In this document: one piece after another, positions 21,898-57,706 of the stretch | Position numbering within the stretch: position 1 is the stretch's first letter | Layout: every line of letters begins with the position of its first letter | Translations under genes and position numbers: made by a program | Source of the DNA: Mustelus asterias | Lineage: Eukaryota | NCBI RefSeq assembly: GCF_964213995.1 | Contig: NC_135817.1 | Span: forward strand, 72,912,001 to 72,976,000 | DNA: 64,000 nucleotides | Direction of reading: 5' to 3' | The notes under the pieces: generated by a model | What the model saw: the letters and a program-made list of their open reading frames with translations, nothing else | Databases searched by the model: none | What the model was told of the DNA's origin: nothing

Positions 21898-22417
21898 AAG
21901 TGTGAGTTCATTCACTTTGGTATTAGTGCTGATTACAAAGCAGAATACTTTTTAAAAGGCATGAAGCTTCGAAATGTTGATGTTCAAAGAGACTTGAGTG
22001 TACCTGTACAGGAAATGCAGAAAGTCAGCATGCAGATACAGCAAGCAATGAGAAAGGCCAAAGGAATATTGGCCTTCATTACGAGTATTGGAATACAAGC
22101 ATAAAGAAGTCTTGCTACATTTGTATGAAACTTTAGTGCGACAATACAGCAAAAGTTCAGTCAACTGACCCCTGGGAAGAGAGAGTTGTTCTATGAGAAA
22201 AAACTGAATAAATTTGGCCTATATTTGGCCTGGAGAATGAGAGGTGATCTCATTGAAACATACAAGATGCTGAAGGGGCTTGACAGGGTAGAGGTTCTTT
22301 CCCCTGGCTGGGGAATATAGTCATGATGTGGAGAAGCCGGCGTTGGACTGGGGTAAACACAGTAAGAAGTCTAACAACACCAGGTTAAAGTCCGACAGGT
22401 TTATTTGGTAGCAAACG

Positions 22418-22456
22418 CCACTAGCTTTCGGAGTGTGCTGCTCCTTCGTCAGGTGG
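22418..22456 (-). ncRNA. Minimal type-I hammerhead ribozyme motif
   Basis: Reverse complement: CCAC CTGACGA A GGAG-CAGCACA-CTCC GAAA G CTA GTGG. Confidence 0.75.
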
Positions 22457-22737
22457 AGTGGGAGATATGCTCACGAATAGGACATACAGAGACACAAACT
22501 CAATTTACAGAATAATGAATGGAATGCTAATCAAGCTAATCAATGCTAATATAGCTAATCAAGTCTTAAAGGTACAGACAATGTGAGTGGAGAGAGCATT
22601 AAGCGCAGGTTAAAGAGATGTGTATTGTCTCCAGCCAGGACAGCCAGTGAGATTTTGCAAGTCCAGGGAAGTTGTGGGGGTTACAAATAGTGTGACATGA
22701 ACCCAAGATTCCGGTTGAGGCCGTCTTCATGTGTGCA

Positions 22738-23517
22738 AATTGGATTATTATCTAAATGGAAAGAAATTACAACATGCTGCTGTGCAGAGGGACCTGGGGG
22801 TCCTTATGCATGAGACGCAAAAAACCCAGTCTGTAGGTGCAACAGGTGATCAAGAAGGCAAATGGGATGTTGGCCTATATCGCAAGGGGATAGAATATAA
22901 AAGCAGAGATGTCTTGCTGCATCTGTACAGGGCATTGGTGAGGCCGCAGCTGGAATATTGTGTGCAGTATTGGTCCCCTTATTTGCGGAAGAATATATTG
23001 GCATTGGAGGGAGTGCAGAGAAGGTTCACCAGGTTGATACCAGAGATGAGGGGTGTTGATTATGAGGAGAGACTGAGCAGATTGGGTTTGTACTCGTTGG
23101 AATTTAGAAGGTTGAGGGGGGATCTTATAGAGACCTATAAGATAATGAAGGGGCTGGATGGGGTAGAGGTGGAGAGATCCTTTCCACTTAGAAAGGAAAC
23201 TAGAACTAGAGGGCACAGCCTCAAAATAAAGGGGGGTCAGTTTAGGACAGAGTTGAGGAGGAACTTCTTCTCTCAGAGGGTGGTGAATCTCTGGAATTCT
23301 CTGCCCACTGAAGTAGTGGAGGCTACCTCGTTGAATATGTTTAAATTACGGATAGATGGATTCCTGATCGGTAAGGGAATTAGGGGTTATAGGGATCAGG
23401 CGGGTAAGTGGAACTGATCCACTTCAGATCAACCATGATCTTATTGAATGGCGGGGCAGGCTCGAGGGGCTAGATGGCCTACTCCTGCTCCTATTTCTTA
23501 TGTTCTTATGTTCTTAT
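22738..23517 (+). mobile_element. Young CR1 3' fragment inserted in the PLE left arm
   Basis: ORF 22731-23417 with LYRALVRPQLEYCVQYWSP..FFSQRVVNLWNSLP; (TTCTTATG)n tail; short TGTGCA duplication. Confidence 0.92.
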
Positions 23518-23812
23518 GTGCAGAACTTGTCTTCAGTTTCTGCTCAGCGAAACCATGCAGATGCTACGACAACGGATGAATGAATACCGCTCGACAATCA
23601 CCAGGCAAGACTGTTCTCTTCCTGTTGGGGAGCACTTCAGCGGTCACAGGCATTCGGCCTCTGATCTTCAGGTAAGCGTCCTCCAAGGCGGCCTTCACGA
23701 CACACGACAGTGCAGAGTCGCTGAGCAGAAACTGATAGCCAAGTTCCGCACACATGAGGACGGCCTCAACCGGGACCTTGGGTTCATGTCACATTATCTG
23801 TAACCCCCACAA

Positions 23813-24553
23813 CAAAGAACAAAGAACAAAGAACAGTACAGCACAGGAAACAGGCCCTTCAGCCCTCCAAGCCTGTGCCGCTCCTTGGTCCAACTAGACC
23901 AATCGTTTGTATCCCTCCATTCCCAGGCTGCTCATGTGACTATCCAGGTAAGTCTTAAACGATGTCAGCGTGCCTGCCTCCACCACCCTACTTGGCAGCG
24001 CATTCCAGGCCCCCACCACCCTCTGTGTAAAAAACGTCCCTCTGATGTCTGAGTTATACTTCGCCCCTCTCAGCTTGAGCCCGTGACCCCTCGTGATCGT
24101 CACCTCCGACCTGGGAAAAAGCTTCCCACTGTTCACCCTATCTATACCCTTCATAATCTTGTATACCTCTATTAGATCTCCCCTCATTCTCCGTCTTTCC
24201 AAGGAGAACAACCCCAGTCTACCCAATCTCTCCTCATAGCTAAGACCCTCCATACCAGGCAACATCCTGGTAAACCTTCTCTGCACTCTCTCCAATGCCT
24301 CCACGTCCTTCTGGTAGTGCGGCGACCAGAACTGGACGCAGTACTCCAAATGCGGCCTAACCAGCGTTCTATAAAGCTGCATCATCAGACTCCAGCTTTT
24401 ATACTCTATACCCCGTCCTATAAAGGCAAGCATACCATATGCCTTCTTCACCACCTTCTCCACCTGTGTTGCCACCTTCAAGGATTTGTGGACTTGCACA
24501 CCTAGGTCCCTCTGTGTTTCTATACTCCTGATGACTCTGCCATTTATTGTATA
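23813..24553 (-). mobile_element. Young CR1 3' fragment inserted in the PLE right arm
   Basis: Open ORF2 C-terminus (LVRPHLEYCVQFWSPHYQKD); (TTCTTTG)n tail; ACAAC duplication. Confidence 0.92.
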
Positions 24554-24773
24554 ACAACTTGCCTGGACTTGCAAAATCTCACTGGCTGTCCTGTCTGGAG
24601 ACAATATACATCTCTTTAACCTGTGCTTAATGCTCTCTCCACTCACATTGTCTGTACCTTTAAGATTTGATTAGCTGTATTAGCATTGATTAGCTTGATT
24701 AGCATTCCATTCATTATTCTGTAAATTGAGTTTGTGTCTCTGTATTCCCTGTTTGTGAGCATATCTCCCACTC

Positions 24774-24812
24774 CCACCTGATGAAGGAGCAGCAAGCTCC
24801 GAAAGCTAGTGG
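24774..24812 (+). ncRNA. Minimal type-I hammerhead ribozyme motif
   Basis: CCAC CTGATGA A GGAGC-AGCAA-GCTCC GAAA G CTA GTGG. Confidence 0.8.
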
Positions 24813-25559
24813 ATTTTGCTACCAAATAAACCTGTTGGACTTTAACCTGGTGTTGTTAGACTTCTTATTGGGGAATATAGAACATGGGGAAATCTCGGGA
24901 TAAAGTGGTCAATTATTTAGGACTGAGGTAAGGAGAACTTCCTTCAGTCGGAGGTTGTGAATCATTGGAATTCTCTATCTTGGCGTGGATGCGTGATTAT
25001 ATTCAAGGTTTTCATAGATAAACTTATGATCTCTGAGGAAATCAAGGAATATGAGGAGCAGACTGAAAGGGGAGTTGAGACAGAAGATCAGCATGGTCAT
25101 CAAGATGCCATTAAGTCTACTGCAGTGCCTAATTCTTATGTTCGACCTAGCTCTTACTTTAAGGTACACCAGTGTTGCTGCATTGGGTCAGTTCCTGGAT
25201 GGAGTTCTCCACAGTAACCAAGCCCTCTAAGATCATTAGCATTTTCTATCAGTTTAGTACACTGGAGGTATTTGGTGTTTTGGGGTAAGAGATTTGCAGC
25301 GGCAACTTTCTTTCTGCACTGCAATTTTTTAGACAACAAATTATATCGATGTAATGGGTTTCTGGGATCATACAGCTGTGTTTGGGTTTAGTCATGTATG
25401 ATCAACTCATGATCCTGTCAGGATCTCATTGAAACTGGCTACTGGGAGAACTAAAGGTAGAATTTTGAACCGTTGAGTTTGTCATTTCCTCAGTCTGTTA
25501 GTCTTCCCATGTCAACATAATGCATTTGACTATCAATCATCTTTTGACTTATCAATATT

Positions 25560-25877
25560 TATAGAATCATAGGATCCCTACAGTGTAGAAGGAGGCCGTT
25601 CGGCCCATCGAATCTGTACCAACCACAACCCATCCCAGGGCTTATTCTTGTATTCCTACACAATTACCCTGCTCATCCCCCTGGCACTACAGCAATTTAA
25701 CATGGCCAGTCCACCTAACCAGCACATCTTTGGACTGTGGGAGGAAACCAGAGCACCTGGAAGAAACTCACAGAGAGAACGTGCAAACTCCACACAGACA
25801 GTGACCCAAGGCTGGAATTGAACCCGGGTGCCTGGCGCTGTGAGGCAGCAGTGATAACCACTGCGCCACTGTGCTGC
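25560..25877 (-). mobile_element. HE1-like SINE, tail A
   Basis: Full length, diverged. Confidence 0.88.
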
Positions 25878-27129
25878 TCATTTGAATGATGATTTTATTA
25901 CAAATAAAGAAAATCCACCCAAGGGCATACGTCCCTCACTTTCCTGGATGGATTGGGCAGCAAGTTACGAATATCGATCAGGTTTAAAATTGGAGTAGTA
26001 AGATCCAAACGCTAGAGTCCCATTCCTTCAGCAACAGTGTGGCACAATGAAACTCCTGTGTGTCCTCTCATTTTCATTGGGTAACAAACAATTAAAAATC
26101 ATGTATTGCAAAGACTAACACTGGATGTGTTAGTGAGTTACAACAGTGTTAGTAACAACAGTGAGTTACTAACCTGCTGCTTATGAGGAACATAAATAGT
26201 ATGTTGACCTGAATTAGACAGCAGTATAATATAGTAAGTAAAAATCACATGGAACACATCCATTTTACCATTGACATCAAAGACATTTCATTTAAATGAA
26301 GATCACTCATGGTTTAGCTCAGATGCCACTTTGGTCATTAGGGTCAGATACATGTTAATGAATATTCTTGAAGTTAATTCTTCTTCAGAGCAAGTCTGAG
26401 CTTTGCAGAGTTTCTTAGGTAAATGGGTGCCCTTTTGGAGAGGTAAGTACCTTTTTGGATATGGTCTGGGAACCTTTGAGGGAAGTCAGGCACCCTTTGG
26501 GAAAAGTAGTCTGTCCTTTGGAGTTGTTAAAAGCAGACATGAATATGTGTAAAAAGTACATAAACTCGTTGGATCTGTCAAGCTCTTGCAACTGTCAAAA
26601 TAAACTGTTAAATTGTCAAAATATTTAAAATCCCTACCCTTTAAAAATAATAAAAACTGTCTGCCGAGTTTTGACATTAGCCTGAGAGCTTTTATTACTT
26701 GATCAGTGCTGCATTGCTGATTTCACAACCTTCCATTATCACAGCAGGGTGGCCATCAGTTCACAGTTTGCTTGACAGCTCCAAGTGGTTATAGAGGGTG
26801 TGATTCTCTCACCCCGCCATGCTATTTTTTTTTTCCCGAGCATGCACGGGATTCACGCATGCTTTCCTGCTGCGTGGCACCTCCCAGTGCTGGATTTCCG
26901 GTGCTATCTGATTCATGTTGGAAAACGGCAGGAACACCAGGTAATCACATCTTATTTTAATGTTATTATAATATGATTAGCGGGCCCGGGACTGAATTCT
27001 CCATTATTAGCCTACTTGTGACACTAATAAATAAACTTTAAAACTTTAATTAAAGATATCAATTGTTGTTAAAGCAAATGGCGCAGAATCAATCCCGTTC
27101 CCAATTCTCAGATATGAAAACTGATTCTG

Positions 27130-27326
27130 CCTTGAGACAGTGTTAACTTCAATCAATTGGAGGAGTGTATCCTAACAGCCCACTCACCGCCCTGTACTGA
27201 CGGCACAGTAAAATAACCTACAGTAAGATGATCTCTGCATATTCCAATTGGTTTCCCAGTCTCATTTCAGTAAAACTCCCTGACGGTGGGACATAAACGG
27301 GAAGCTTGTCTGTCTCATCTCCCCAC
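27130..27326 (-). repeat. Unclassified element of about 190 bp (copy 1)
   Basis: Reverse-complement homolog of 30581-30772; shares GTGTATCCTAACAGCCCAC, CTGTACTGACGGCAC and TGCATATTCCAATTGGTTTCCCA. Strand is given relative to copy 2. Confidence 0.75.
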
Positions 27327-28594
27327 AATTTCATCTGCCCCTCTCCCACCTCTGCCTCCTGTCGACTGGTAAAGTTCTGCCCAATCTTACTGGAGCTATC
27401 ATTCCCAATCTTACTGGAGCCATCAAAGAACAAAGGAAATTACAGCACAGGAACAGGCCCTTCGGCCCTCCAAGCCTGCACCGACCATGCTGCCCGACTG
27501 AACTAAAACCCCCTACCCTTCCGGGGACCGTATCCCTCTATTACCACCTATTCATGTATTTGTCAAGACGTCCCTTAAAAGTCACTATTGTATCTGCTTC
27601 TCGTACCTCCCCCAGCAGCAAGTTCCAGGCACCCACCCCACTCTGTGTAAAAAACTTACCTTGAACACCTCCTTTAAACCTTGCCCCTCACACCTTAAAC
27701 CTATGCCCCCTAGTAATTGACTCTTCCACCCTGGGAAAAAGCTTCTGACTATCCACTCTGTCCATGCCCCTCATAATCTTGTAGACTTCTATCAGGCCTC
27801 CCCTCAACCTCCGTTGCTCCAAAGAGAACAAATCAAGTTTCTCCAACCTTTCCTCATAGCTAATGCCCTCCATACCAGGCAACATCCTGGTAAATCTTTT
27901 CTGTACCCTCTCCAAAGCCTCCACATCCTTCTGGTAGTGTGGTGTCCAAAATTGAACACTATATTCCAAGTGTGGCCTAACTAAGGTTCTATAAAGTTGC
28001 AACATGACTTGCCAATTTTTAAACGCAATGCCCCAGCCAATGAAGGCAAGCATGCTGTATGCCTTCTTGACTACCTTCTCCACCTTGGGAGAAGGTAGTC
28101 ACTTTCAGTGACCTGTGTACCTGTACACCCAGATCCCTCCGCCTATTAATACTCTTAAGGATTCTGCCATTTTTCTGTATATCTCCTATCTGTATTAGAC
28201 CTTCCAAAATGCATTACCTCACATTTGTCCGGGTTAAACTCCATCTGCCATCTTTCCACCCAAGTCTACAACCAATCTATACCCTGCTGTATCCTCTGAT
28301 GGTCCTCATCGCTATCCGCAAATCAACCAACCTTTGTGCCGTCCGCAAACTTACTAATCAAACCAGTTACATTTTCCTCCAAATCATTTATATATATATA
28401 TTACAAACAGCAAAGGTCCCAGCACTGATCCTTGAGGAACGCCACTTGTCACAGCCCTCCATTCAGAAACACACCCTTCCTCTGTCTTCCATGACCAAGA
28501 TGTGGAGATGCCGGCGTTGGACTGGGGTAAACACAGTAAGAAGTTTAACAACACCAGGTTAAAGTCCAACAGGTTTATTGGGTAGCAAAAGCCA

Positions 28595-28631
28595 CACAAG
28601 CTTTCGGAGCTGCAAGCCCCTTCTTCAGGTG
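28595..28631 (-). ncRNA. Minimal hammerhead ribozyme motif
   Basis: Reverse complement: CAC CTGAAGA A GGGGC-TTGCA-GCTCC GAAA G CTT GTG. Confidence 0.75.
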
Positions 28632-28934
28632 AGTGGGAATTCTGTTCACAAACAGGGCATGTAAAGACACAAGCTCAATTTACATGAATAATAGTTGGAA
28701 TGCGAATACTTACAACTAATCAAGTCTTTAAGAAACAAAACAACGTGAGTGGAGAGAGCATCAAGACAGGCTAAAGAGATGTGTATTGTCTGGAGCCTGT
28801 CTTGATGCTCTCTCCACTCACGTTGTTTTGTTTCTTAAAGACTTGATTAGTTGTAAGTATTCGCATTCCAACCATTATTCATGTAAATTGAGTCTGTGTC
28901 TTTACATGCCCTGTTTGTGAACAGAATTCCCACT

Positions 28935-28971
28935 CACCTGAAGAAGGGGCTTGGAGCTCCGAAAGCTTGTG
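28935..28971 (+). ncRNA. Minimal hammerhead ribozyme motif
   Basis: CAC CTGAAGA A GGGGC-TTGGA-GCTCC GAAA G CTT GTG. Confidence 0.75.
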
Positions 28972-29156
28972 TGGCTTTTGCTACTAAATAAACCTGTTGG
29001 ACTTTAACCTGGTGTTGTTAAACTTCTTTCCATGACCAAGCCAGTTCTGTATCCACCTCGCCAGCTCACCTCTGATCCCATGCGGCTTCACCTTCTGTAC
29101 CAGTCTGCCATGAGGGACCTTGTCAAAGGCCTTACTGAAGTCCATGTAGACAACAT

Positions 29157-29780
29157 ATTCCCAATCTTACTGGAGCTATCATTCCCAATCTTTCTGGAGC
29201 TATCATTCCCAATCTCTCTGGAGCTATCATTCCCAATCTCTCTGGAGCTATCATTCCCAATCTCTCTGGAGCTATCATTCCCAATCTTTCTGTAGCTACC
29301 ATTCCCAATCTTTCTGGAGCCACCATTCCCAATCTAGCTGGAGCTATCATCCCCAATCTCTCTGGAGCTATCATCCCCAATCTCTCTGGAGCTATCATTC
29401 CCAATCTCACTGGAGCTATCATTCCCAATCTCTCTGGAGCTATCATTCCCAATCTCTCTGGAGCTATCATTCCCAATCTCTCTGGAGCTATCATTCCCAA
29501 TCTTTCTGGAGCTACCATTCCCAATCTTTCTGGAGCTACCATTCCCAATCTAGCTGGAGCTATCATTCCCAATCTCACTGGAGCTATCATTCCCAATCTC
29601 TCTGGAGCTATCATTCCCAATCTCTCTGGAGCTATCATTCCCAATCTCTCTGGAGCTACCATTCCCAATCTCTCTGGAGCTATCATTCCCAATCTCTCTG
29701 GAGCTATCATTCCCAATCTCACTGGAGCTATCATTCCCAATCTCTCTGGAGCTATCATTCCCAATCTAGCTGGAGCTATC
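29157..29780. repeat. Minisatellite, 26 x 24 bp
   Basis: Unit ATTCCCAATCT(NN)CTGGAGCTA(T/C)C; 624 bp equals exactly 26 units; about 1.9 more units at 27380-27424. Confidence 0.95.
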
Positions 29781-29869
29781 ATCAAGCTCCGTAATTTCTT
29801 TATCTCACTTTTCAAGCTCTTGTTCTTGACCTGGTTATTTCTCTGGAATGGTTACAATTTTGCTCCTTC

Positions 29870-30268
29870 AGGTTTAAGAGATTTGATAGAGATGTTCAAG
29901 ACCGTGAAGGGACTGGATATAGTTGATGGGAAGGAGAAACTGTTCCCATTCATAAAAGGATCAAGAATGAGAGAGCACAGATTTAAAGTGATTTAAAGTG
30001 CAAAAGAAGCAAACGCTATGTTAGAAAAATCTCTTTCACACAGTGAGTGGTTGGACTGTGGAGTGCACTGCCTGGAAGTGTGCTGGAGGCAGGTTTAATC
30101 ACGGCATTCAAGAGAGCATTAGATGATTATCTGAGTAGAAACAATATGCAGGAGTATGGGGAAAAGGCAGGGGAACGGCACTAAGTCATAATGCTCATTT
30201 GGAGAGCCGGTGTAGACACGATGGGCCAAATGGCCTCCTGCACGGTAACAATTTTGTGATTCTGTGAT
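29870..30268 (+). mobile_element. CR1 3' fragment with (TTCTGTGA) tail
   Basis: LRDLIEMFK..FTQ.VVGLWSALP-like remnant and 3'UTR. Confidence 0.8.
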
Positions 30269-30269
30269 C

Positions 30270-31370
30270 TTTGAAGGGAGTACATTCCAGATCATAATGA
30301 CGAGCTGTGTAAAGACTTTTGGTCTCATCTCACCTCTGTCTGTTTGACCAATTACCTTAAATCTATGTCCATGATTACAGATCGGCCTCGCACTGAGAGC
30401 AGAGTCTTCTTGTTTACTCTATCAAGACCCCACAAGATTTTGAACAGCTCCATTAAATCTCTCCTTAACATTCTTGGCTCTAAGGAGAACAATCCCAGCT
30501 TTTCCAGTTTCTGCAAATAACTGAACTTCTGCATCTTTGCTTCAGTTTAGTAAGTCTCCCCTGCACCCCATCTAAGACCTCATGGGGAGCTGTGTTGGAT
30601 GGGCTCCCTGACTATGTCCCACTGCTGTTGGGGTATTTTACTGAACTAAGAATGGGAAACCAATTGGAATATGCAAAGACCCTAGTAAGGGCCATTTTAC
30701 CGTGCCGTCAGTACAGGGTGGGCTGTTAGGATACACTTCTCTGATTGATTGGAGTTTGTTTGCTCTGTCTTCAAGACCTAAGTGTGGTGCCCAGAATTAA
30801 ACCAGAGATATACCAGTTGAGGCCTAAACTGTGATTTATGAAGCTTCTGTATAAGTTCTTTGCTTTTGAACTCTATTCCATTGTTCATTACATCAAGAAT
30901 CCAATATGCCTCTTGAACAGAATTCTCAACTTGCTCTGCTGCCTTCAATGATTCTTGTACTTGCCCCAGATTTCCCTGTTTCTACACAACATTAAACTTG
31001 GACCATTTGGTTTATATTGCCTCTTACTCTTCTTTCCAAAATCCTACATTTAACACTTTTCTGCTTGAAGTTGGAACTGCCATGTTTCTGCCCCTTTCAC
31101 CTGTCCATGTCTCTCTGAAGTCTCTTACTACCCTTTTCGCTGTTTATTACATTTCTGAGCTTTGTGCCATGTGCAAGCTTTGAAATAATAGTCTGATATT
31201 CAAGTCCGGGTCACTAACATATATTATAAACAGTACTGATCCAAGGATGTGGGTGGCTGGGGGAGGGGAGGTCGCCACTGATTACTGCCTTCTAGTCCAA
31301 AAAGCAATTATTTACCACTATGTTCTACCTTCTGTTCCTGCGTCAGTTCCATATCCATTCTGCCGCTGCT
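30270..31370 (-). mobile_element. Old CR1 fragment
   Basis: LEKLGLFSLEPRMLRRDLMELFKIL (30352-30534). Confidence 0.75.
30581..30772 (+). mobile_element. Unclassified element of about 190 bp (copy 2)
   Basis: Interrupts a CR1; flanked by AAGACCT at 30574-30580 and 30773-30779. Confidence 0.7.
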
Positions 31371-31764
31371 CCTTGTTAGAATGTAATCGGTGACAACTTT
31401 GTATTGGATGCAATGTGACCAACGGTAACAAGCTGTAAGGGTCAGCTGACCCAGTAAACCATGGAACCAATTATAGAACGACATAATAGTCAGCTGACTC
31501 ACTATAAATAAGGACCTGTTTGGTATTGTGTTCCGCTTGGAGTGGCCCTGGGCGAGGCCCCACGTTTGGAGTAATGATGTTTCTTTACTAAACCCTTTCT
31601 TTGATTTATAAGTTGGAGTAAGTTTTGTTCTATTTTTATTGTCTGCATTTGAAGAGTTACTTCTGATGAAACACTCATTAGTCCCATGGCCTTTAATTCT
31701 TCTATAAACATATTATGTAGGATTATTACATGCTTGAACTTTTGCTTAGTTGGTATATTAAGTC

Positions 31765-31988
31765 TGTGGAGCGAGAAGTCCCTTCACCAAAATCCCTTTA
31801 TTTACGAACTCTAACAGCAGTACACCGAGTGCTAGCAGTTAGCGGTCTACCTCCGGGGGTGTCAGAGAAACTGACACGCCCAGTTATGTACAAGGCAAAG
31901 ACTCCCTGATTGGCCCATCAATTGGATCCTTAATCAGGGAGTTCATACTCCAATTGCCAACCTCAATGGCCCGATTGAAGTCATTACA
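31765..31988 (-). mobile_element. Possible LTR remnant
   Basis: TGT...ACA ends and TTTATT (reverse AATAAA) near 31797; no TSD found. Confidence 0.35.
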
Positions 31989-32172
31989 GTTGGTAATACA
32001 TTCGCCAGTCTCTGAGTTGGAAGGTTCTGAGTTCAAACCCCAATCCAGGACTTGAGCACAAAAATGAAGGGAGTATTACACTGTCTGAGATGCCATCTTT
32101 TGGATGAGATCTCAAGTGATGGATGTAAAAGATCCAATCATAATATTTTAAAGGTGAGTTATCCCTGGTGTC

Positions 32173-33348: not shown

Positions 33349-33454
33349 GGCCAGTCCCCAGGACGTGGAGATGCCGGCGTTGGACTGGGGTAAGCACAGT
33401 AAGAAGTCTCACAACACCAGGTTAAAGTCCAACAGGTTTATTTGGTAGCAAATA

Positions 33455-33491
33455 CCATAAGCTTTCGGAGCGATGCCCCTTCGTCAGATGG
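33455..33491 (-). ncRNA. Minimal hammerhead ribozyme motif
   Basis: Reverse complement: CCAT CTGACGA A GGGGC-ATC-GCTCC GAAA G CTT ATGG. Confidence 0.75.
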
Positions 33492-33676
33492 AGTGGTCTC
33501 TGTTCTCCAACAGTGCACAGACACAGAAATCAAGTTACAGAATACTAATTTAATGTTCCCTCCACCCACATTATCTGTACCTTTTAAGACCTGGCTGGCT
33601 GTAGAGATTTGCATTCTAATTAGTATTCTGTTACTTGATTTCTGTGTCTGTGCACTGTTGGAGAACAGAGACCACT

Positions 33677-33713
33677 CCATCTGACGAAGGGGCAGCGCTC
33701 CGAAAGCTTATGG
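33677..33713 (+). ncRNA. Minimal hammerhead ribozyme motif
   Basis: CCAT CTGACGA A GGGGC-AGC-GCTCC GAAA G CTT ATGG. Confidence 0.78.
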
Positions 33714-33907
33714 TATTTGCTACCAAATAAACCTGTTGGACTTTAACCTGGTGTTGTGAGACTTCTTACAGTCCCCAGGACACCAGGGATCAACATTACA
33801 AAAACAGATTAGCTGCACATTGCTGTTTGTGGGAGCTTGCATTGCAAACATTTTTAAAATTATAACTCTTCAAAAAAGTACTTAATTGGTGGTAAAGCAC
33901 TTTGCGA

Positions 33908-34207: not shown

Positions 34208-34699
34208 CGATCAATTTTGCAGTTATTGAAGCTATCGGCTCGATTGAGGAAATGTGCGTCTACTTAAGGAGAAACAGCTGTGCAAATTTTGTCGTTTTAT
34301 TTTTCAAAATATTAAAAGTGAACATTATTAGCCTCAATTGTCAGACATCCTAAATGCTTCAGAAAGGAGTTATCTCCAAAAACCTTCTGCTGCATCCTCC
34401 TCTATTCCAAGACTGGTTTAGAGGGCACAGCAACCGGAAGGGTAAATTCCTCCTCAAACCCCAAGCACTTCACGTTTAACTCCAATACCAAATCTAAACT
34501 GCCGCAGGATGTCTTCATTTCCAAAAATTAGATAATCTGTGCAGCTGATTTGCTCATTTCGATGAAGAACGTAGGAAACTGAAGCAAGTGTAGACCTTAA
34601 GGCCCATCAACCAGCCCTCTCCCTCTTCCCAATCCAGCTCATTTCTCCCATCCAACTTCCCCTCTTCCCCCTAAACTTATCTTTTCCACCAGACCCACT

Positions 34700-35037
34700 T
34701 CATAGAATCCCTACAGTGCAGAAGGAGGCCATTCTGCCCATCGAGTCTGTATCGACCACAATCCCACCCAGGGCCTATCCCCGTAACCTCACAAATTTAC
34801 TCGCTAGTCCCTCTAACATACGCAACCCGGGACACTAAGCGGCAATTTAGCAAGGACACTGCACCTAACCCGCACATCTTTGGACTGTGGGAGGAAACCA
34901 GAGCACCTGGAGGAAACCCACGAAGGCACAGGGAGAACGTGCAAACACCACACAGACAGTGACCCAAGCCGGGAATCAAACCCAGGTCCCTGGTGCTGTG
35001 AGACAGCAGTGCTAACCACTGTGCCACCGAGCCGCCC
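34700..35037 (-). mobile_element. HE1-like SINE, tail A
   Basis: Full length. Confidence 0.9.
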
Positions 35038-35054
35038 TTAATAAGCCCTTGTGA

Positions 35055-35465
35055 TGATCTTATAGAGATCTTATAGAAACATATAAGATTATGAAGGGAA
35101 TAGATAAGATAGAAGCAGGGGAGTTGTTTCCACTGGCGGGTGAAACTAGAACTTGGGGGCATAGCCTCAAAATAAGAGGAAGCAGATTTAGGACTGAGTT
35201 GAGGAGGAACTTCTTCACACAAAGGGTTGTGAATCTGTGGAATTCCCTGCCCAGTGAAGCAGTTGAGTCTACCTCATTGAATGTTTTTAAGGCAAGGATA
35301 GATACATTTTTGAACAGTAAAGGAATTAAGGGTTATGGTGAGCGGGCGGGTAAGTGGAGCTGAGTCCACAAAAAGATCAGCCATGATCTTATTGAATGGT
35401 GGAGCAGGCTCGAGGGGCCAGATGGCCTACTCCTGCTCCTAGTTCTTATGTTCTCATGTTCTTAT
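35055..35465 (+). mobile_element. CR1 3' fragment
   Basis: ORF 35091-35363 FFTQRVVNLWNSLP; (TTCTTATG)n tail. Confidence 0.9.
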
Positions 35466-36498
35466 TCTGTTCCCAATTCGGACTTCTATGCTGGTGGCAT
35501 TGTTAATGGCTCCTTTTGCTCAGCCACTATTCTTGATCGCTTGAAAATTGCTGCCGTCAATCACTTTCTCAATGTCTTGTCAACCATCATACCATTATCA
35601 ACACCCATTTCGTGTCTAGCTGATTTCCAGCCTATATTCCTTAATTCAGTGATCTGAGTTTAACCGATTTTATTTTAGCACAATCAGTTCTTCACGTGCT
35701 TTGACACAAGATTACCTTTCTTCAATCTGCATGTGGTTTAACTGAGTCAATGCGTCAGCTCTCCATCTTATCAACATTTAGCTCAAGTGTCTACAAACAC
35801 CCATTCCTTCTGAATTTCGCTCAAATTTATCGTGAAGATGCTTTGAAACCGTGCGAGTCTCTGTCTTCCTTGTGGCATAACGCATTTCTCGCTGTTTGCA
35901 GTGTGTTTTCAGTGTGGTTGAAGAGCACTTTCAGAAGCATTTTAATTGCGGTAGATTTATATGAGTGGAACTACCTCTAAGCTTGTGGATTTCCTGTGTA
36001 GTAATGGTGCTCTGCACCTTATCAGAGTTTCATCTACCACCCAAGTGCAGAGCTGGTTGACAGAGTGAGGCACACACCTACTTTGCAACCCTTCCATACA
36101 TCTGTTTTCTCAGCAGCGCGCACAGCTAAGACCCTCAGCGGTGGCGTGGAGGTGACCGAGCTTAAACAAGGACACAATACACATTGGGTTAGAAATTTGA
36201 TTCCCAGTTAGTCTTGTGGTTTATAATTGAATCCCGGGACAAGCAATATGTCAGAAAAAAAAAGCTACTACCTAACTATGCCCATTAACAAGAATTAGCT
36301 GGAATCCCTTCAAATGGAGTTGAGAATAAATTGGAACCAAATTAAGTGTGCTTATATAAGACAGCTGCTGACATCAGACTAGTATATAAAGTTTGTCCTT
36401 TAGTTTTTGACTCTATTGTTAAGGGTTGCCGCAGGTATTTTCTACAGAGGAAGCAACCCAGTTTGCTTACAAGCTGCAACCTGCATTGAGGCGAAAGA

Positions 36499-36584
36499 GG
36501 CCATAATTCTACCACCTCGCCCGCCCTGGTTCCCTTCTGGGTCCCTACAATTCCCATGGTGGGTGGGATGGGAGAATTCCGGCT
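36499..36584. mobile_element. Short TIR element (MITE-like)
   Basis: Imperfect TIRs GGCCATAATTCT / AGAATTCCGGCT. Confidence 0.4.
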
Positions 36585-36829
36585 TAAGATGGAAAGGAAA
36601 AATTTGCATTCTTATCGAAAAGCAACACAACCAACATTTACCCAAAAGGAAACACTCCTGTTAAAATAGCCAGAAACTAAGGAGAATCCATATTGTTCTT
36701 CCCTAGTTAGAATACAAACTTGTCGTTTGCCAAAGCAAACTTGAATCTAGGCGTGCAATATTTGAGAAAAAAATAATTTGACCGACTAATTTTTAATTTT
36801 GGGACTGCGTTGCAGTGTTAATCATTGGA

Positions 36830-37110
36830 CGGTACATTGGCACAGTGATTAGCACTGCTGCCTCACAGCGCCAGGGACCCGGGTTCGCTTCCCGGCTTGG
36901 GTCACTGTCTGTGTGGAGTTTGCACGTTCTCCCCGTGTCTGCGTGGGTTTCCTTCGGGTGCTCCGGTTTCCTCCCACAGTCTGAAAGACGTGCTGGTTAG
37001 GGTGCATTGACCCGAACAGGTGCCGGAGTGTGGCGACTAGGGGAGTTTCACAATAACTTCATTGCAGTGTTAATGTAAGCCTAATTTGTGACTAATAAAT
37101 GAACTTTAAA
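36830..37110 (+). mobile_element. HE1-like SINE, tail B
   Basis: Full length. Confidence 0.9.
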
Positions 37111-37807
37111 AGTCCTGTCTGCAGTGGCAGGAAAATCAAAATGAATTTAATTTCACCAATTGAACCCCAGTCTTCGAGCTGGGACGCTGCCCCTCCGTTT
37201 CTCACGTTAGCCTGTTAACAGAAATAATTTCTAGAATCCGGAGCCCCGACATCTTACACTGCCTGAAGTATGCTCGGATAGAAATTCTGCCTGCCAGTAT
37301 GCTTCCACAGTGATTGTGGCTCCAAATCTCAAGAACTGGATCATGGAATCTGCACCGCTATGGTGCTGTTGGAGGAATGCAAAGCTTTCCTTGATGCTCC
37401 AGAGGAATCAGAGGCCCAGATCACACAGAAGCAAAATGTTTGGGAACCCGCCCTCTGGAATGATAGGGCCATTTGGCAATGCAGTGATCGATTATCATTG
37501 GAGTTTGCATTCTTCACCAGCCCAGAACCTCCTCTCGGCTTGCCCCCTGCCCCCCCAACCCCACCACCACTCACCCCCCTAACAATAGTTTAGGTGGAGT
37601 GAAAACTCAGTGGAACCAAATTGCAACCCCCCTCCAGAACTCCACCAGAATTCTGCGCGTACCCAACCACAGGCAGAGTTCTGAGGTTTGTAAATTTATC
37701 TGTGGTAGGTTTACATGGTCTGCTTTCCACCATTACCTGAGTCTGCTCACATTTTTAAAGACGAAATTGGTGTGGAAATGATGAATTCCTCAACAGATTA
37801 AATGTAA

Positions 37808-38080
37808 ATTCATTAGTCACAAGCAAGGCTTACATTAACACAGCAATGAAGTTACTGTGAAATTTTCCTAGTCGCCACACTCCGGCGCCTGTTTGGGTCA
37901 ATGTACCTAACCAGCACGTCTTTCGGACTGTGGGAGGAAACCAGAGCACCCGGAGGAAACCCACGCAGACACGGGGAGAACGTGCAAACTCCACACAGAC
38001 AGTGAACCAAGCTGGGAATCGAACCCGGGTCCCTGGCGCTGTGAGGCAGCAGTGCTAACCACTGTGCCACCGTGCCGTCC
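37808..38080 (-). mobile_element. HE1-like SINE, tail B
   Basis: Full length; inverted relative to the 36830 copy. Confidence 0.9.
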
Positions 38081-38187
38081 CATGTAATCTGTGGTTTGAA
38101 CAAATAGATTGCAGATCCAATTCTAAACGCTGAATTCACCTGCCAATGCTGGGGCAAATTCCACCATCTTTTTCTTGATGTAGAAAG

Positions 38188-38570
38188 AAAGACTTGCATT
38201 TATATAGCACCTGTCACAACCAAGGATATCCTATGCATGTAGTCACTGTTGTAACGCAGGAAACAGCAATCAATCTGCACACATCAATAGCAATATGATA
38301 ATCACCAGGGCATTTGTTTGTGATGTTGATTATGAGATAAAAATTGGCTGGGGTACCAGTAATAACTCTTCTTCAGATGAGTGCCATGGAATTTAGCAGA
38401 GGGGCAGATGGGGCCTTTACTGAATGCCTCAACTGAAAGATGTCACCTTCCACTGTGCACACGCCCTCGGTATTGCAATGGAGTGTCAGCCTTGACTTTT
38501 GTGTTCAGATTTAGATTTCAATGCGTTACCTTCTGACTCCAAAGCAAACTGCGACCAACTGAGAATAGTT
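38188..38570 (-). mobile_element. Old Deu-SINE
   Basis: GACTTGCATTTATATAGCACC tail, CAATCTGCACAC core, CCTTCTGACTC head remnant. Confidence 0.65.
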
Positions 38571-38915
38571 TAGTGACTTTTGGAAGTCTAATTCACTGCG
38601 GTTAAAAAGCCTGACACTATCCCCCCTTCTACACTTAGAATGAATGGAACATCTTTGCAAACACAGGCTGGGCATTTGGCTAGAACCTGTTTCTACTGGG
38701 TTGAAATCAGCACGGATTGTTTCCCTTTCCATCCCCTCAGTGATAACCCCTCAGTGGTCAATGAAATTTCATTTACAACTTAAACTCATCAACTAAAGAC
38801 ACTTGAACAAATCCAGAGCTGGTCTTTAAACTCAAGCCTTATGTTTTAGTGCCCACAAACCCAGAACTGTTGTTAAGTGAGCTACTTCTGACTTCTGTCA
38901 GTTTTTTTGGATTAT

Positions 38916-39248
38916 GGGCGGCACGGTGGCACAGTGGTTAGCACTGCTGCCTCACAGTACCGGGGACCCAGGTTCGGTTCCTGGCTTGGGTCAGTGTCTG
39001 TGCAGAGTCTGCACATTCTCCCTATGACTGCGTGGGTTTCCTCTGGGTGCTCTGGGTTCCTCCCACAGTCCAAAGGTGTGTGGGTTAGGTGGATTGGCCA
39101 TGCTCAATTGCCCCTTAGTGTCAGGGGGACTAGCTAAGGTAAATGCATGGGGTTATGGGGATAGAGGCCTGGGTGGGATTGTGGTGAGTGCAGACTCGAT
39201 GGGCTGAATGGCCTCCTTCTGCACTGTATGATTCTATGATGATTCTAT
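38916..39248 (+). mobile_element. HE1-like SINE, tail A
   Basis: Full length with (ATTCTATG)n. Confidence 0.92.
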
Positions 39249-39410
39249 ATCCAAGATTGGATACTGCATCCCATCTGAGTTCTTTTCTAAAGATAAAACA
39301 TTTCTGATAATTACTTCAGTAGGTAAATGACCAGACAAAGCACATTCAACAAGCTCAACAATCCAATATCATTGGGCTAAATATTCGGTAATAAAAAAAA
39401 TCTCACTTAC

Positions 39411-39686
39411 CTGAAATGAACTATATCTTCGAAAGGATCCTTTTACGCACCAGCTTTTAAATCAGCTTTAATTTGACTACACTATCCTTCAATTGTGAAC
39501 TCAGATATAACCCCAACTAATTACAATCCAGTGTTCAAAGTAATTGTGATGGAATATATCAACTTGCAGATTATTCGTGAGTATTGCTGAAATCAGTTGA
39601 CGGCAAATGAGTATTTTTGTTGAGTTGAGTTGAGTGGAAACTCAAAAACCTAAGCCATTCTCTGTCAACGCCCACTGTATTGTTTC
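39411..39686 (-). other. Putative non-coding exon
   Basis: Perfect donor CAG|GTAAGT at 39411/39410; candidate acceptor TTTACAG ending 39687; stops in the frames checked. Confidence 0.3.
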
Positions 39687-39957
39687 CTGTAAACTGAGTA
39701 TCATAAATTTCTGCTAAAGTGCATTATTTTGACTACAACACACACTTTAACTTGTCTACGCACAAAATGACACACTACATATTTTTAAAATATACCGGTC
39801 GGCTTTTGGAGATAGGTTTCCAAAGAAAACCTTACAACTGTGCACCGTTTCTTTTGAATTCAAAGCCATTTTACAGCAGCCAGATAGGTGCCATTTTACA
39901 AGCAGTTTGAATCGCATTTGACAGAATACTCTATATTTTTTGTCCCGTGAAACTTAC

Positions 39958-40390
39958 CTGCTAACACTCCAGCACAAATTCTTCTTAAAGGATTACTTGG
40001 AAGGGTAAAACCATTTACGAAAACCAAAGCTAGCACACCATCTGTGTTAATGGCATCAGGATATGTCGGGGTGCAGGTGCATGTTGAGGCGTCATGACGA
40101 CCCGGAAGTTCTGTTCACCCTTATTGTCTATGTGAAGCCATCCATTTGCGTACATTTTCGGTGAAAATTTTAAAGCAATGAATCGGCTTTCCGTTGTACA
40201 GGGCCGAATATTCTTTACCATTTGTGCAGTATTTAATTTGAAATAAAAATGGAAATATTCTATTGAGTGTATCAAGTAAACTTAAAGAGGCCAATCTTCC
40301 CATCAAGATCCCTTTTTAAAAATCCGATCCGGTGAAATATGATTGACATTAAACCTTTTTCTGTTCTCTTCAATTATGTTCGTAGTTTAA
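39958..40390 (-). promoter_or_regulatory. Putative promoter / first non-coding exon
   Basis: ETS/GABP motif CCGGAAGT (40102-40109), palindrome CGTCATGACG (40090-40099), about a dozen CpGs in AT-rich unique DNA, donor CAG|GTAAGT at 39958/39957. Confidence 0.45.
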
Positions 40391-40458
40391 AAGTATTTTT
40401 TTTTGCAGACAGTGAATGTTGGTGACATCCTCTGCAGTCTGTACTGTGGAGCGGCTGA

Positions 40459-40806
40459 GAATCATAGAATCATAGAAATCCTATAGTGCAGAAAGAGGCC
40501 ATCTGACCCATCGAGTCTGCACCGACCACAATCCCACCCAGGCCCTACCCCCTTATCCCAACACATTTACCCGCTAATCCCTCTAACCTACGCATCTCAG
40601 GACACTAAGGGGCAATTTTACCATGGCCAATCAACCTAACCTGCACATCTTTGGACTGTGGGAGGAAACCGGAGCACCCGGAGGAAACCCACGCAGACAC
40701 GAGGAGAATGTGCAAACTCCACACATACAGTGACCCAAGCCAGAAATCGAACCCAGGTCCCTGGAGCTGTGAAGCAACAGTGCTAACCACTGTGCTACCG
40801 TGCCAT
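40459..40806 (-). mobile_element. HE1-like SINE, tail A
   Basis: Full length. Confidence 0.92.
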
Positions 40807-41234
40807 GCAGAATCATTTAATTTTGAACACCGTCTGACAGGTAGAAGTTTGGGAGGCATTGAATTCGCCCCAGACTGTCCTTTAGAGCAAGACATCAACA
40901 CCAAAAAAATCGATTATCATTAACATTCAGGAACAGAGCAAGAGAAGCAACAGGACACCGAGCTTCACAAATTGCAATACACTTGGGCATCGATTAGCAG
41001 AGTTTTCCAGCAACAGATGAACAAATCGCTTAAGAGAGTTGAAGATGAGGGAAGTAAATTATTACAGATATAGTCATGAATGCTGGAGTAATTGACATGA
41101 CAAAACAATGTGATATTAATGATAATCATAACTCTTTGGAGCTGCATGTTAAAAAGGGATACTGGCAGTGATTCACTCTTTAAAAACCACTTGCTTCTAA
41201 ATTTACCAGTCGACAATTAATAATTAAGGAGCTT

Positions 41235-41525
41235 CACGGTGGCGCAGTGGTTTAGCACTGCTGCCTCACAGCACCAGGGACCCGGGTTCGATGCTGACCT
41301 CGGGTGACTATCTGCGTGGAGTTTGCACATTCTCCCCGCGTCTGCTCTGGTTTCCTCCCAGATGTGCAAGTTAGGTTGATTGGCCATGCTAAATTGCCTC
41401 TTAGTGTCGGGGCATTTGAAGGGTAAATATGTGGGGTTATGGGAATAGGGCCTGGGTGGGATTGTTGTCGTTGCAGACTCAATGGGCCAAATGGCCTCCT
41501 TCTGCACTGTAGGGATTTTATGAAT
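41235..41525 (+). mobile_element. HE1-like SINE, tail A
   Basis: Full length with a small deletion. Confidence 0.88.
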
Positions 41526-42037
41526 AAACTTCAATTATCCTATTATAGACAGGAGGCAACAAAGGGCAAAGTGGATGAAGAGTTCTGAGGAGAACTTCCT
41601 TTAGATTGACAGAGTAAAGAATAAATTAAAATGGTCTACAAAAGAGCCAGTGACTGTGGAGGAAAGATTGCAAAAAGAACTGAATGTCCAGGTGTAACAA
41701 AAACAATATATAAGATTCACTTGCTCAAAAAACAGCTGGGAAAGTCATCAACACTTGGCTGAAATTGTGAAAAATTTATTTAGAAGTTTATTTATTTGTG
41801 TCACAAGTGTCACAAATTTGTGTCACAAATTTGATTGAGTTTTTTCAAGGGGTAACCAAGAAGGTAGATGACGGCAGTGCAGTTGATGTTGTCTACATAG
41901 ACTTTAGCAAGGTCTTTGACAAGGTACTGCATGGTCGGTTGTTGCATAAGGTTAAATCTCACGGGATACAGGATGAGGTAGCTAAATAGATACAAAATTG
42001 GCTTGATGACAGAATGTGGAGATGCCAGCGTTGGACT

Positions 42038-43090
42038 CATGGTGAACAATCACTGAAACAACTCTATGATGACATCAACAAGTTCCATCCCACCGTCAGA
42101 CTCACCATAGACTACTCTCCGGAATCGGTTGCATTCTTGGACACACGCATCTCCATTAAGGACGGTCACCTCAGCACCTCACTGTACCACAAGCCCACGG
42201 ATAACCTCACGATGCTCCACTTCTCCAGCTTCCACCCTAAACACGTTAAAGAAGCCATCCCCTACGGACAAGCCCTCCGAATACACAGGATCTGCTCGGA
42301 TGAGGAGGATCGCAACAGACACCTCCAGATGCTGAAAGATGCCCTCATAAGAACAGGATATGGCGCTAGACTCATTGATCAACAGTTCCAACGCGCCACA
42401 GCGAAAAACCGCACCGACCTCCTCAGAAGACAAACACGGGACACAGTGGACAGAGTACCCTTCGTTGTCCAGTACTTCCCCAGAGCGGAGAAGCTACGGC
42501 ACCTCCTCCGGAGCCTTCAACATGTCATTGATGAAGACGAACATCTCGCCAAGGCCATCCCCACACCCCCACTTCTTGCCTTCAATCAACCGCACAACCT
42601 CAAACAGACCATTGTCCGCAGCAAACTACCCAGCCTTCAGGAGAACAGTGACCACGACACCACACAACCCTGCCACAGCAACCTCTGCAAGACGTGCTGG
42701 ATCATCGACACAGATGCCATCATCTCACGTGAGAACACCATCCACCAGGTACACGGTACATACTCTTGCAACTCGGCCAACGTTGTCTACCTGATACGCT
42801 GCAGGAAAGGATGTCCCGAGGCATGGTACATTGGGGAAACTATGCAGACACTGCGACAACGGATGAATGAACACCGCTCGACAATCACCAGGCAAGACTG
42901 TTCTCTTCCTGTTGGGGAGCACTTCAGCGGTCACGGGCATTCGGCCTCTGATATTTGGGTAAACATTCTCCAAGGTGGCCTTCGTGACACACGACGGCGC
43001 AGAGCCGCTGAGCAGAAACTGAGAGCCAAGTTCCGCACACACGAGGACGGCCTCAACCGGGATCTTGGGTTCATGTCACACTATCTGTAA
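42038..43090 (+). CDS. PLE ORF C-terminal part: RT end/thumb, Cys-rich linker, GIY-YIG endonuclease (partial)
   Basis: Open for about 350 codons: FLDT..LYHKPTD..LHFSSFHP; PCHSNLCKTC; NVVYLIRC..WYIGET..RQRMNEH..EQKL..GLN. Confidence 0.9.
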   Translation, partial: HGEQSLKQLYDDINKFHPTVRLTIDYSPESVAFLDTRISIKDGHLSTSLYHKPTDNLTMLHFSSFHPKHVKEAIPYGQALRIHRICSDEEDRNRHLQMLKDALIRTGYGARLIDQQFQRATAKNRTDLLRRQTRDTVDRVPFVVQYFPRAEKLRHLLRSLQHVIDEDEHLAKAIPTPPLLAFNQPHNLKQTIVRSKLPSLQENSDHDTTQPCHSNLCKTCWIIDTDAIISRENTIHQVHGTYSCNSANVVYLIRCRKGCPEAWYIGETMQTLRQRMNEHRSTITRQDCSLPVGEHFSGHGHSASDIWVNILQGGLRDTRRRRAAEQKLRAKFRTHEDGLNRDLGFMSHYL

Positions 43091-43299
43091 CCCCCACAGT
43101 TTACCTGGACCTGCAGAGTTTCACTGGCGGTCTTGTCTGGAGACAATACACATCTTTTTAGCCTGTCTTGATGCTCTCTCCACTCACGCTGTTTGTTTCT
43201 TAAAGACTTGATTAGCTGTAAGTATTCGCATTCCAACCATTATTCATGTAAATTGAGTCTGTGTCTTTATATGCCCTGTTTGTGAACAGAATTCCCACT

Positions 43300-43336
43300 C
43301 ACCTGAAGAAGGGGCTTGGAGCTCCGAAAGCTTGTG
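43300..43336 (+). ncRNA. Minimal hammerhead ribozyme motif in the PLE 3' pLTR
   Basis: CAC CTGAAGA A GGGGC-TTGGA-GCTCC GAAA G CTT GTG, about 210 nt after the stop codon. Confidence 0.8.
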
Positions 43337-44468
43337 TGGCTTTTGCTACTAAATAAACCTGTTGGACTTTAACCTGGTGTTGTTAAACTTCTTACTGTTG
43401 ATGACAGAAGCCAGAGGGTGGTTGTAGAAAGTTGTTTTTCAAACTGAAGGCCTGTGACCAGCAGTGTGCCTCAAGGATCAGTGCTGGGTCCACTGTTATT
43501 TGTCATTTATATTAATGATTTGGATGAGAATATAGGAGGCATCGTTAGTAAGTTTGCAGATGACACTAAGATTGGTGGCATAGTGGACAGTGAAGAAGGT
43601 TATCTCAGATTGCAACGGGATCTTGATCAATTGGGCCAGTGGGCTGATGAACGGCAGATGGAGTTTAATTTAGATAAGTGCAAGGCACTTTGGTAGACTG
43701 AACCAGGGCAGGGCTTACTCAGTTAATGGTAGGGCGTTGGGGAGAGTTACAGAACAAAGAAATCTCGGGGTACAGGTTCATAGCTCCTTGAAACTGGAGT
43801 CACAGGTGGACAGAGTGGTGAAGAAGGCATTCAGCCAATGGTCCCATTGGTCAGAACATTGAATACAGGAGTTGGGATGTCTTGTTGAAGTTGTACAAGA
43901 CATTGGTAAGGCCAGACTTGGAATACTGTGTACAGTTCTGGTCATCCTATTATAGAAAAGATATTATTAAACTAGGAAGAGTGCAGTAAAGATTTACTAG
44001 GATGCTACTGGGACTTGATGGTTTGAGTTATAAAGAGAGGTTGGATAGACTGGGACTTTTTTCTCTGTAGCGTAGAAGGCTGAGGGATGATCTTATAGAG
44101 GTCTATAAATAATGAGGGGCATAGATTAGCTAGATAGTCAATATCTTTTCCCAAAGATAGGGGAGTCTAAAACTAGAGGGCATAGGTTTAAGTGAGAGGG
44201 GAGAGATATTAAAGTGTCCAGAGGGGCAACTTGTTCACACAGAGCATGGTGAGTGTCTGGAACAAGATGCCAGAGGTAGTAGTAGAGGCGGGTACAATTT
44301 TGTCTTTTAAAAAGCATTTAGATAGTTACGTGGGTACGATGGGTATAGAGGGATATGGGCCAAATGCGGGCAATTGGGACTAGCTTCGGGGTTCAGAAAA
44401 AAGGGCAGCATGAACAAGTTGGGCCGAAGGGCCTGTTTCCATACTGTAAACCTCTATGACTCTATGAC

Positions 44469-57685: not shown

Positions 57686-57706
57686 GTAGGGCAACAATAA
57701 CTGATC

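Follow-up and report, generated by a model that had tools for sequence, protein, structure and literature searches.

Minimal hammerhead motifs in four truncated, probably inert Penelope-like insertions of Mustelus asterias, and hints of a cleavage footprint in their genome-wide family

We have analysed a window of 64,000 nucleotides of the Mustelus asterias genome (NCBI RefSeq assembly GCF_964213995.1, contig NC_135817.1, positions 72,912,001 to 72,976,000 of the forward strand; coordinates below are counted from the first letter of this window), in which an earlier note, made from the sequence alone, had placed seven minimal hammerhead ribozymes (min-HHRs) in the termini of Penelope-like elements (PLEs). 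Judging from sequence, the seven motifs are quite probably min-HHRs in the pseudo-long terminal repeats (pLTRs) of four truncated PLE insertions of Neptune or Nematis type, likely inert in place, and the motif likely works only in the RNA of the parent element. The motifs, the insertions that carry them, each delimited by a target-site duplication (TSD), and the remains of the open reading frame (ORF) of the element are as follows.

22309..24880, unstranded: insertion 1, 12-bp TSD (22309-22320 / 24869-24880), inverted pLTR arm and direct arm
22418..22456, minus: min-HHR, subfamily A, stem I CCAC/GUGG, H17=A; long-tail arm of insertion 1
23480..23803, plus: endonuclease-end remnant of the PLE ORF in insertion 1, 72% to aa 784-892
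24774..24812, plus: min-HHR, subfamily A, H17=A at 24808; short-end arm of insertion 1
28487..29040, unstranded: insertion 2, 13-bp TSD, head-to-head inverted pLTR pair without ORF
28595..28631, minus: min-HHR, subfamily B, stem I CAC/GUG, 6-bp stem II, H17=U; long-tail arm of insertion 2
28935..28971, plus: min-HHR, subfamily B, H17=U at 28968; short-end arm of insertion 2
33352..33781, unstranded: insertion 3, 13-bp TSD, head-to-head inverted pLTR pair without ORF
33455..33491, minus: min-HHR, subfamily C, stem I CCAU/AUGG, H17=U; long-tail arm of insertion 3
33677..33713, plus: min-HHR, subfamily C, H17=U at 33709; short-end arm of insertion 3
42003..43409, plus: insertion 4, 12-bp TSD (42003-42014 / 43398-43409), inverted tail of ~25 bp, 5'-truncated ORF, pLTR
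42035..43090, plus: C-terminal part of the PLE ORF (reverse transcriptase (RT) thumb, CX4CxxC linker, GIY-YIG endonuclease)
43300..43336, plus: min-HHR, subfamily B, H17=U at 43333; 3' pLTR of insertion 4
51549..51661, plus: copy of the same family truncated within stem II, without CUGANGA

All seven motifs were found at the places and on the strands first listed, with C3 at 22452(-), 24778(+), 28628(-), 28938(+), 33487(-), 33681(+) and 43303(+), and H17, in the same order, at 22422, 24808, 28598, 28968, 33459, 33709 and 43333; the 3' product of the last motif would thus start at 43334, as the note had it. The CUGANGA...GAAA core with its NUH triplet is present in 7/7. In positional order N7 reads C,U,A,A,C,C,A, in agreement with the variation among A, C and U described before, and H17 reads A,A,U,U,U,U,U. 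An extra A after A9 (7/7 in the window, 183 of the 184 copies parsed) and the loopless AGCU palindrome at 15.2-16.2 in place of a helix III (7/7; AGCU in 178/184) are likewise as claimed. Helices I and II can pair, with G10.1-C11.1 present (95.5% of alignment cells paired vs 32-49% in slid controls). The stem I pairs CCAC/GUGG and CCAU/AUGG are both seen, but the three GUGUGG motifs (subfamily B) have a stem I of only 3 bp, not 4, together with a stem II of 6 bp and a 3-nt loop. A descriptor that required the core, pairing over 3 bp in stem I and over 4 bp in stem II, and the palindromic 15.2-16.2 gave 7 matches in the window vs 0 in total across 200 first-order Markov simulations, and the motifs are therefore not a matter of chance. 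The interval 22321..43397 to which they had been assigned does hold all seven, while the copy truncated in its core (51549-51661) and a motif of a second family (57794-57832) fall outside it. The proposed check with Infernal and the Rfam hammerhead models gave no support: a scan of the window at E<=1 returned no hammerhead family and only 5 matches to miRNA-type hairpins, a miss that is presumably to be expected of a motif lacking helix III.

The TSDs of 12-13 bp delimit four insertions, so that the seven motifs represent four events and three subfamilies rather than seven samples. Insertions 1-3 are inverted pairs whose motifs lie on opposite strands, which means that no dimer can form within one transcript. 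In each insertion the two arms differ in their ends: one stops at a short site, while the opposite, inverted arm has a tail ~37 nt longer. The motifs are found ~200 nt past the end of the GIY-YIG ORF, or in the same repeat without the ORF, and are followed by AATAAA and a conserved end. Insertion 1 is broken up by two other long interspersed nuclear element (LINE) fragments, about 22737-23517 (+) and 23815-24553 (-), which we take to be CR1-like; Pfam gave no match for them. The ORF fragment of insertion 4 corresponds, at 92.6% identity, to aa 533-892 in a natural copy of full length; its GIY-YIG match (E 4.9e-4) is below the Pfam cut-off. A Tandem Repeats Finder run on the window found no head-to-tail array of motif-bearing units. 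The 3' ends of 149 unbiased arms collected genome-wide fall into two classes, 79 short and 61 long, with 9 outside both; this bimodality matches the two RT starts and the tail reported for an Anolis element (PMC11167929). An inverted 5'-truncated pLTR, a one-sided tail and a TSD are shared by all four insertions with the endonuclease-bearing (EN+) PLE units described in PMC3846280 and PMC8557442, where the tail is 30-40 bp; the TSDs of the rotifer EN+ examples are shorter, 8-10 bp. At all four target sites a GCCAG-like motif follows on one strand, and several of the insertions lie within other LINE fragments.

Over the whole 3.68-Gb genome the exact core pattern was matched 104,728 times (control pattern 0), roughly once per 35 kb; this count is a lower bound, because the stem II of the youngest branch, GGGGCU-CAG/UAG-AGCCUC, escapes the pattern. 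The adjacent 26-mer was matched 180,883 times, and a protein search returned 38,036 candidates, among which the 150 that were scored are all 97-100% identical and without stops. In 7 of 18 stretches, fetched by selection for long frames, we recognized the organization pLTR-ORF-pLTR with two same-strand motifs 3,021-3,097 nt (~3.1 kb) apart, an arrangement that would naturally lend itself to a dimer. Full-length copies exceed one unit and have 2-3 pLTRs each. Such copies agree with the model of PMC4209133, in which a unit, efficiently cut by both of its motifs, is closed by ligation into a circular template with an intact motif restored at the junction, and that model would also explain why most copies have an intact motif upstream of the RT starts; read-through of tandem sources, however, accounts for the same pattern, and we consider the circular route rather improbable for this family.

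The natural full-length ORF encodes 893 aa, with a match to RVT_1 (E 4.9e-10), a CX4CxxC linker at aa 754 and the GIY-YIG motif VVY..WYIG; the predicted cut lies 99 nt 5' of the ATG, upstream of both RT start sites. According to PMC8557442 a CX2-5CxxC linker between RT and endonuclease marks Neptune and Nematis and is absent in Penelope and Poseidon. By this criterion the family would be of Neptune/Nematis type. Many copies have open 913-aa frames, suggesting that the family may still be active. Some other features of the repeat were observed along the way. In the window (43352-43400) and in homologues, AATAAA is followed ~20 nt on by a GU-rich tract and looks like a poly(A) signal; it sits between the cut site and the RT starts, so that polyadenylated RNAs would lack the RT starts. 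Read in antisense (28930-28945 and 43295-43310, minus strand), stem I and core of subfamily B form a perfect splice-donor consensus, CAG/GUGAGU, which, being present in tens of thousands of copies on both strands, may seed cryptic splicing; subfamily C is without this donor. A donor-like GUAAGU also occurs upstream in subfamily B, with an acceptor-like tract before the ATG, and this donor is without counterpart in A or C.

Much of what is described above is known from other PLEs. The min-HHRs of metazoan PLE pLTRs were described by Cervera and de la Pena in 2014 (PMC4209133), and with them the motif, its features and the logic of the dimer: an extra base between 9 and 10.1, G10.1-C11.1, a palindromic 15.2-16.2, covariation in the family and weak cleavage as dimers. 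The copies studied here share with those min-HHRs the type I topology without helix III or loop 3, the extra base 9/10.1, G10.1-C11.1, the palindrome, a short helix I and the U3-A8 variant (the latter reported in Schistosoma), as well as the occurrence of several families per genome, mostly as solo copies or opposite-strand pairs, with the motif in both pLTRs of the element. The proposal that these are PLE hammerheads of partner-dependent design is upheld. They differ in the lengths of helix II (5-6 bp) and helix I (3-4 bp), which are 7-8 and 4-5 bp in Schistosoma, and in scale, the 104,728 exact cores comparing with about 4,000 in coelacanth and 9,000 in Xenopus (PMC4209133). The Anolis Poseidon element PAc (Frangieh et al. 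2024, PMC11167929) likewise has a pLTR-ORF-pLTR organization with RT and GIY-YIG domains; its hammerhead precedes the RT starts, of which there are two, yielding a short end and a tail, and both strands are primed. PAc belongs to Penelope/Poseidon and its cut is 26 nt inside the ORF, whereas the present family, whose protein has the CX4CxxC linker, has its cut 5' of the ATG and its RT starts no further downstream than the ATG. Animal non-LTR retrozymes (10.64898/2026.07.22.740005) also contain PLE-derived type I hammerheads, in head-to-tail tandem arrays, while the copies in the window are head-to-head pairs or solo. Our literature search found no shark case and no genomic footprint of the cut; supplements, which may list related motifs, were outside this search. 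In the available part of PMC6155905 sharks are named only for the shape of the motif, and the retrozyme preprint, as far as its available text goes, covers one chondrichthyan. What is new here is the scale and a partly supported footprint of the cut.

The earlier note had read covariation within the window as a sign of selection, and this was not sustained. Only 1 of 11 stem pairs, 2.1-1.1 (C-G vs U-A), changes on both sides, in 2 of 6 distinct rows, and the covariation score of the window was equalled by 38/500 shuffles. The alternation of A-U and G-U pairs in stem II is there as described, but it is a one-sided change at 10.3-11.3 and not covariation. A tree of upstream pLTR sequence unites the 46 C-G rows in a single supported clade, out of 67 rows whose upstream DNA is homologous; a long branch takes up 15 of 82 rows, which are probably truncated copies with inverted-arm DNA and inflate the 3-5 changes counted by the tool. 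We have thus rejected covariation in the window as proof of selection, the change being a single inherited event. Across the family, the pair types most often seen at 2.1-1.1, 2.2-1.2, 2.3-1.3 and 10.1-10.4 are without exception standard ones. In the youngest branch changes at 11.2 and 11.3 shift the G-U wobble from 10.3 to 10.2 with six pairs kept, and in a GAAGC/GCUUC variant the pair 10.2-11.2 is swapped to A-U, in about 11/100 among the matches listed, counted by eye, with a search pattern that forced non-G/non-C at 10.2-11.2. H17 is U or A in the window, as had been claimed, but among 148 copies genome-wide it is also C (U 68, A 47, C 32), with G in a single one.

A second PLE-like family, with 27-36% identity to the main family over the endonuclease (two overlapping loci), is represented in the window by one motif:

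57794..57832, plus: min-HHR of the second PLE-like family, U3-A8 core, stem II GAGUC/GACUC, ACGU palindrome, H17=C

This motif lies inside an inverted pair and its stem I is decayed. With ACGU in place of AGCU, the second-family pattern was matched 2,295 times vs 736 for the control; stem II differs from that of the main family, with A-U at 10.2 and U-A at 10.4, and U3 occurs together with A8 in 4 distinct copies, one of them at 57798 in the window. The inverted pair (57700-57940) is scored by Rfam as a miRNA-like hairpin, below the cut-off, and a decayed relative is found near 57530-57690 (+). Since the core is constant across subfamilies, the changes in the stems keep pairing and the second family swaps the palindrome, the motif appears to have been kept by selection in the replicating lineage.

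Inserted copies behave differently. In a sample that admitted copies with up to 2+2 core and 3 anchor mismatches, post-insertion changes at non-CpG sites amount to 28/1924 (1.46%) in the core vs 54/3848 (1.40%) in the flanking 26-mer (P=0.91), and the CpG formed by C11.1-G12 has changed at 32/296 sites. Thus, of the suggestion that these are selected self-cleaving RNAs in need of two copies, the selection in the replicating lineage and the partner-dependent design hold, while inserted copies decay neutrally: selection, as far as these sequences can tell, acted on replicating elements and not on inserted copies. This bears directly on the idea that inserted copies actively cut host transcripts and are selected to do so. 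With about 1e5 intact cores, roughly one per 35 kb, all 16 invariant positions kept in 95/148 unbiased copies, and same-strand neighbours 4-10 kb apart in the window, the material for such cutting would be at hand. The core sites, however, change as fast as the flanking element DNA, which argues against cutting of host RNA as a function. Inverted arms would moreover pair with each other and conceal the motif, the read-through RNA of insertions 2 and 3 being predicted to form long hairpins of -447 and -319 kcal/mol with 85-90% of the bases paired; the same-strand neighbours are partly mismatched in stem I, the 5' strands of A and B failing at the first pair with the 3' strands of C; and no host gene was recognized by Pfam among 19 ORFs scanned in the window, a search that short exons would escape. 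That the inserted copies could cut host transcripts is therefore not borne out, and we regard it as very unlikely.

If the motif functions in the parent RNA, its cleavage may have left a trace in the 5' ends of truncated copies. Counting, in the GUGUGG (young) branch, copies whose two bases preceding the start both differ from the element, we found 1,594 that start exactly at N1.1, with 425 at -1, 422 at -2 and 161 at -4; 42,469 copies of this branch are intact through GAAAGCUU. The cut-site starts correspond to 3.6% raw, or about 6% when corrected for the 9/16 filter. The count at -1 is about that expected of chance filler after a true cut-site end, the -2 listing contains many U-rich fillers and possible single-U insertions, and the count at -4 equals the background of the unbiased sample, about 0.5% per nt. 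At 30 cut-site loci (29 insertions) 31 arms start at 0; of the remaining arms near the cut 17 stop short (+2..+11) vs 4 that pass it (-2..-24). This excess of 5' ends at the cut hints at a record of in vivo cleavage of the parent RNA. In PAc no RNA ends were found at the cut (PMC11167929), while here it is genomic 5' ends that are enriched.

A second and larger accumulation of ends was found at the 5' edge of the motif: of 180 unbiased arms extending as far as C3, 54 stop 1-8 nt beyond it on the 5' side, or 3.75% per nt, compared with 0.74% at -9..-40. By subfamily these are 34/45 in the older H17=C subfamily, for which few references underlie the figures, 8/57 in B/young, 6/22 in A and 5/55 in C, in which there is no excess. 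Thirty of the 54 edge arms join an inverted arm and the other 24 have unique, mutually unrelated flanks. In a check for a cap signature, G precedes the start in 7/10 arms starting at -6, which the inverted arm explains in part. The simplest reading is that RNA would start at the 5' edge of the motif, at an initiator-like CCACUC; exonuclease stalling and end-joining bias are the alternatives. In the Penelope of D. virilis the promoter is internal to the pLTR (PMC2377424). Most sampled copies of the older H17=C subfamily are ~100-135 nt long, start at the hammerhead's 5' edge and resemble a derivative the size of a short interspersed nuclear element (SINE).

The edge ends raise the question of whether the motif is instead a structural or promoter element of the RNA 5' end that seldom or never cuts, the AGCU palindrome and the GAAAGCU/GGCUUUU hairpin giving rise to the cut-site ends through RT pausing or end-joining. 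Besides the larger pile-up at the edge of stem I, this interpretation could call on the unfavourable energetics of the dimer and the unreplicated cut-site excess, both detailed below, on the low activity in vitro (PMC4209133), and on mutants of the Anolis hammerhead that had no effect on insertion in vitro (PMC11167929). It does not readily explain why the peak stands at the exact scissile bond and drops off on its 5' side, since joins at the palindrome would give ends 5-6 nt further 5', nor why H17 avoids G (1/148) although U, A and C all occur there, nor why positions 3 and 8 covary from C3-G8 to U3-A8. The exclusion of G at H17 and the exchange of C3-G8 with U3-A8 are constraints of the hammerhead catalytic core. 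On balance we find a structural or promoter role with little or no cutting unlikely, though less so than the circular template.

Several observations nonetheless weigh against a ribozyme that cuts in the parent RNA. In the unbiased sample only 5/232 arms lie within 1 nt of the cut, which is not significant (P=0.15), and in 800 kb of random stretches 0/77 arms do. The second family, with 74 vs 47, provides no clean replication of the excess, and the 30 of its junctions that were read are largely microhomology joins or deletions. The genome-wide counts of 5' ends cover the cut and its 5' side (0, -1, -2, -4) and no position 3' of it, and for Anolis PMC11167929 reports no RNA reads with an end at the cut. 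Conservation alone is no proof of catalysis, since the flanking 26-mer is conserved to the same degree as the motif. Nearest-neighbour energies disfavour the dimer in 9/9 motifs tested; as an example, the dimer of subfamily B is predicted at -18.1 kcal/mol vs -28.2 for two monomers, and this subfamily prefers an alternative hairpin that hides GAAAGCU. Unfavourable dimer energies are in line with the weak activity in vitro (PMC4209133) and with the dependence on protein (PMC11167929). A monomeric stem III closed with a downstream GCU was considered and rejected as off-fold: a hairpin is possible in subfamily B, but no matching stem I is left.

These results can be combined in the following scheme, which we consider the most likely, for a weak, partner-dependent ribozyme of the parent RNA. 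Two copies of the motif would be supplied by both pLTRs of a read-through transcript, or by two RNAs held by a dimeric protein; AGCU would pair with AGCU, with the strands of stem I swapped between the copies, and a minority of molecules would be cut after H17, probably with the help of the element's protein, protein-assisted cleavage having been demonstrated for the Anolis PLE ribozyme (PMC11167929). Both target strands would be primed, with RT starting 62 or 99 nt 3' of the cut (the short end and the long tail), and copying of the two strands would put the motif on both strands of most insertions. A cut RNA may sometimes serve as template, its cDNA running off at the cut to give stubs that start at N1.1; most templates would be uncut, allowing intact motifs to spread. 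The anatomy of the insertions and of the full-length copies, the copy counts, the neutral decay after insertion and the excess of ends at the cut in the B/young branch are direct observations; dimer, protein help, cleavage and RNA start are proposed steps.

Outside the PLE copies, the window contains a minisatellite at 29157-29782, in which a 24-bp unit is repeated 26 times with 94% match and three frames are open; the unit recurs in short arrays at 27380-27425. A dispersed repeat of 300-350 bp, probably a SINE, has >10 copies across 16077-62723.

The seven copies in the window are ordinary transposon debris, and the interest of the finding is in the family. PMC4209133, PMC8557442 and PMC11167929 all leave open whether PLE min-HHRs cut in vivo and for what purpose. 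In a young family that has intact ORFs and about 1e5 motifs, cleavage becomes testable from genome sequence alone, by means of a truncation map, and natural variants of stem I, stem III and C3-G8/U3-A8 are available for compensatory-mutation assays. We put forward tentatively, as a possibility more doubtful than not, that the genome is a readable map of the element's RNA, in which ~4-6% of young copies owe their start at the scissile bond to templates already cut by the ribozyme in germ cells and the larger class at the edge marks the RNA start. If this were true, it would be the in vivo evidence of PLE min-HHR cleavage that RNA-seq failed to give in Anolis; the hammerhead would make up the first ~40 bases of the element's mRNA and act as a self-decapping switch, triggered only by the meeting of two RNAs on the element's dimeric protein, with stem I as a subfamily-specific pairing code.

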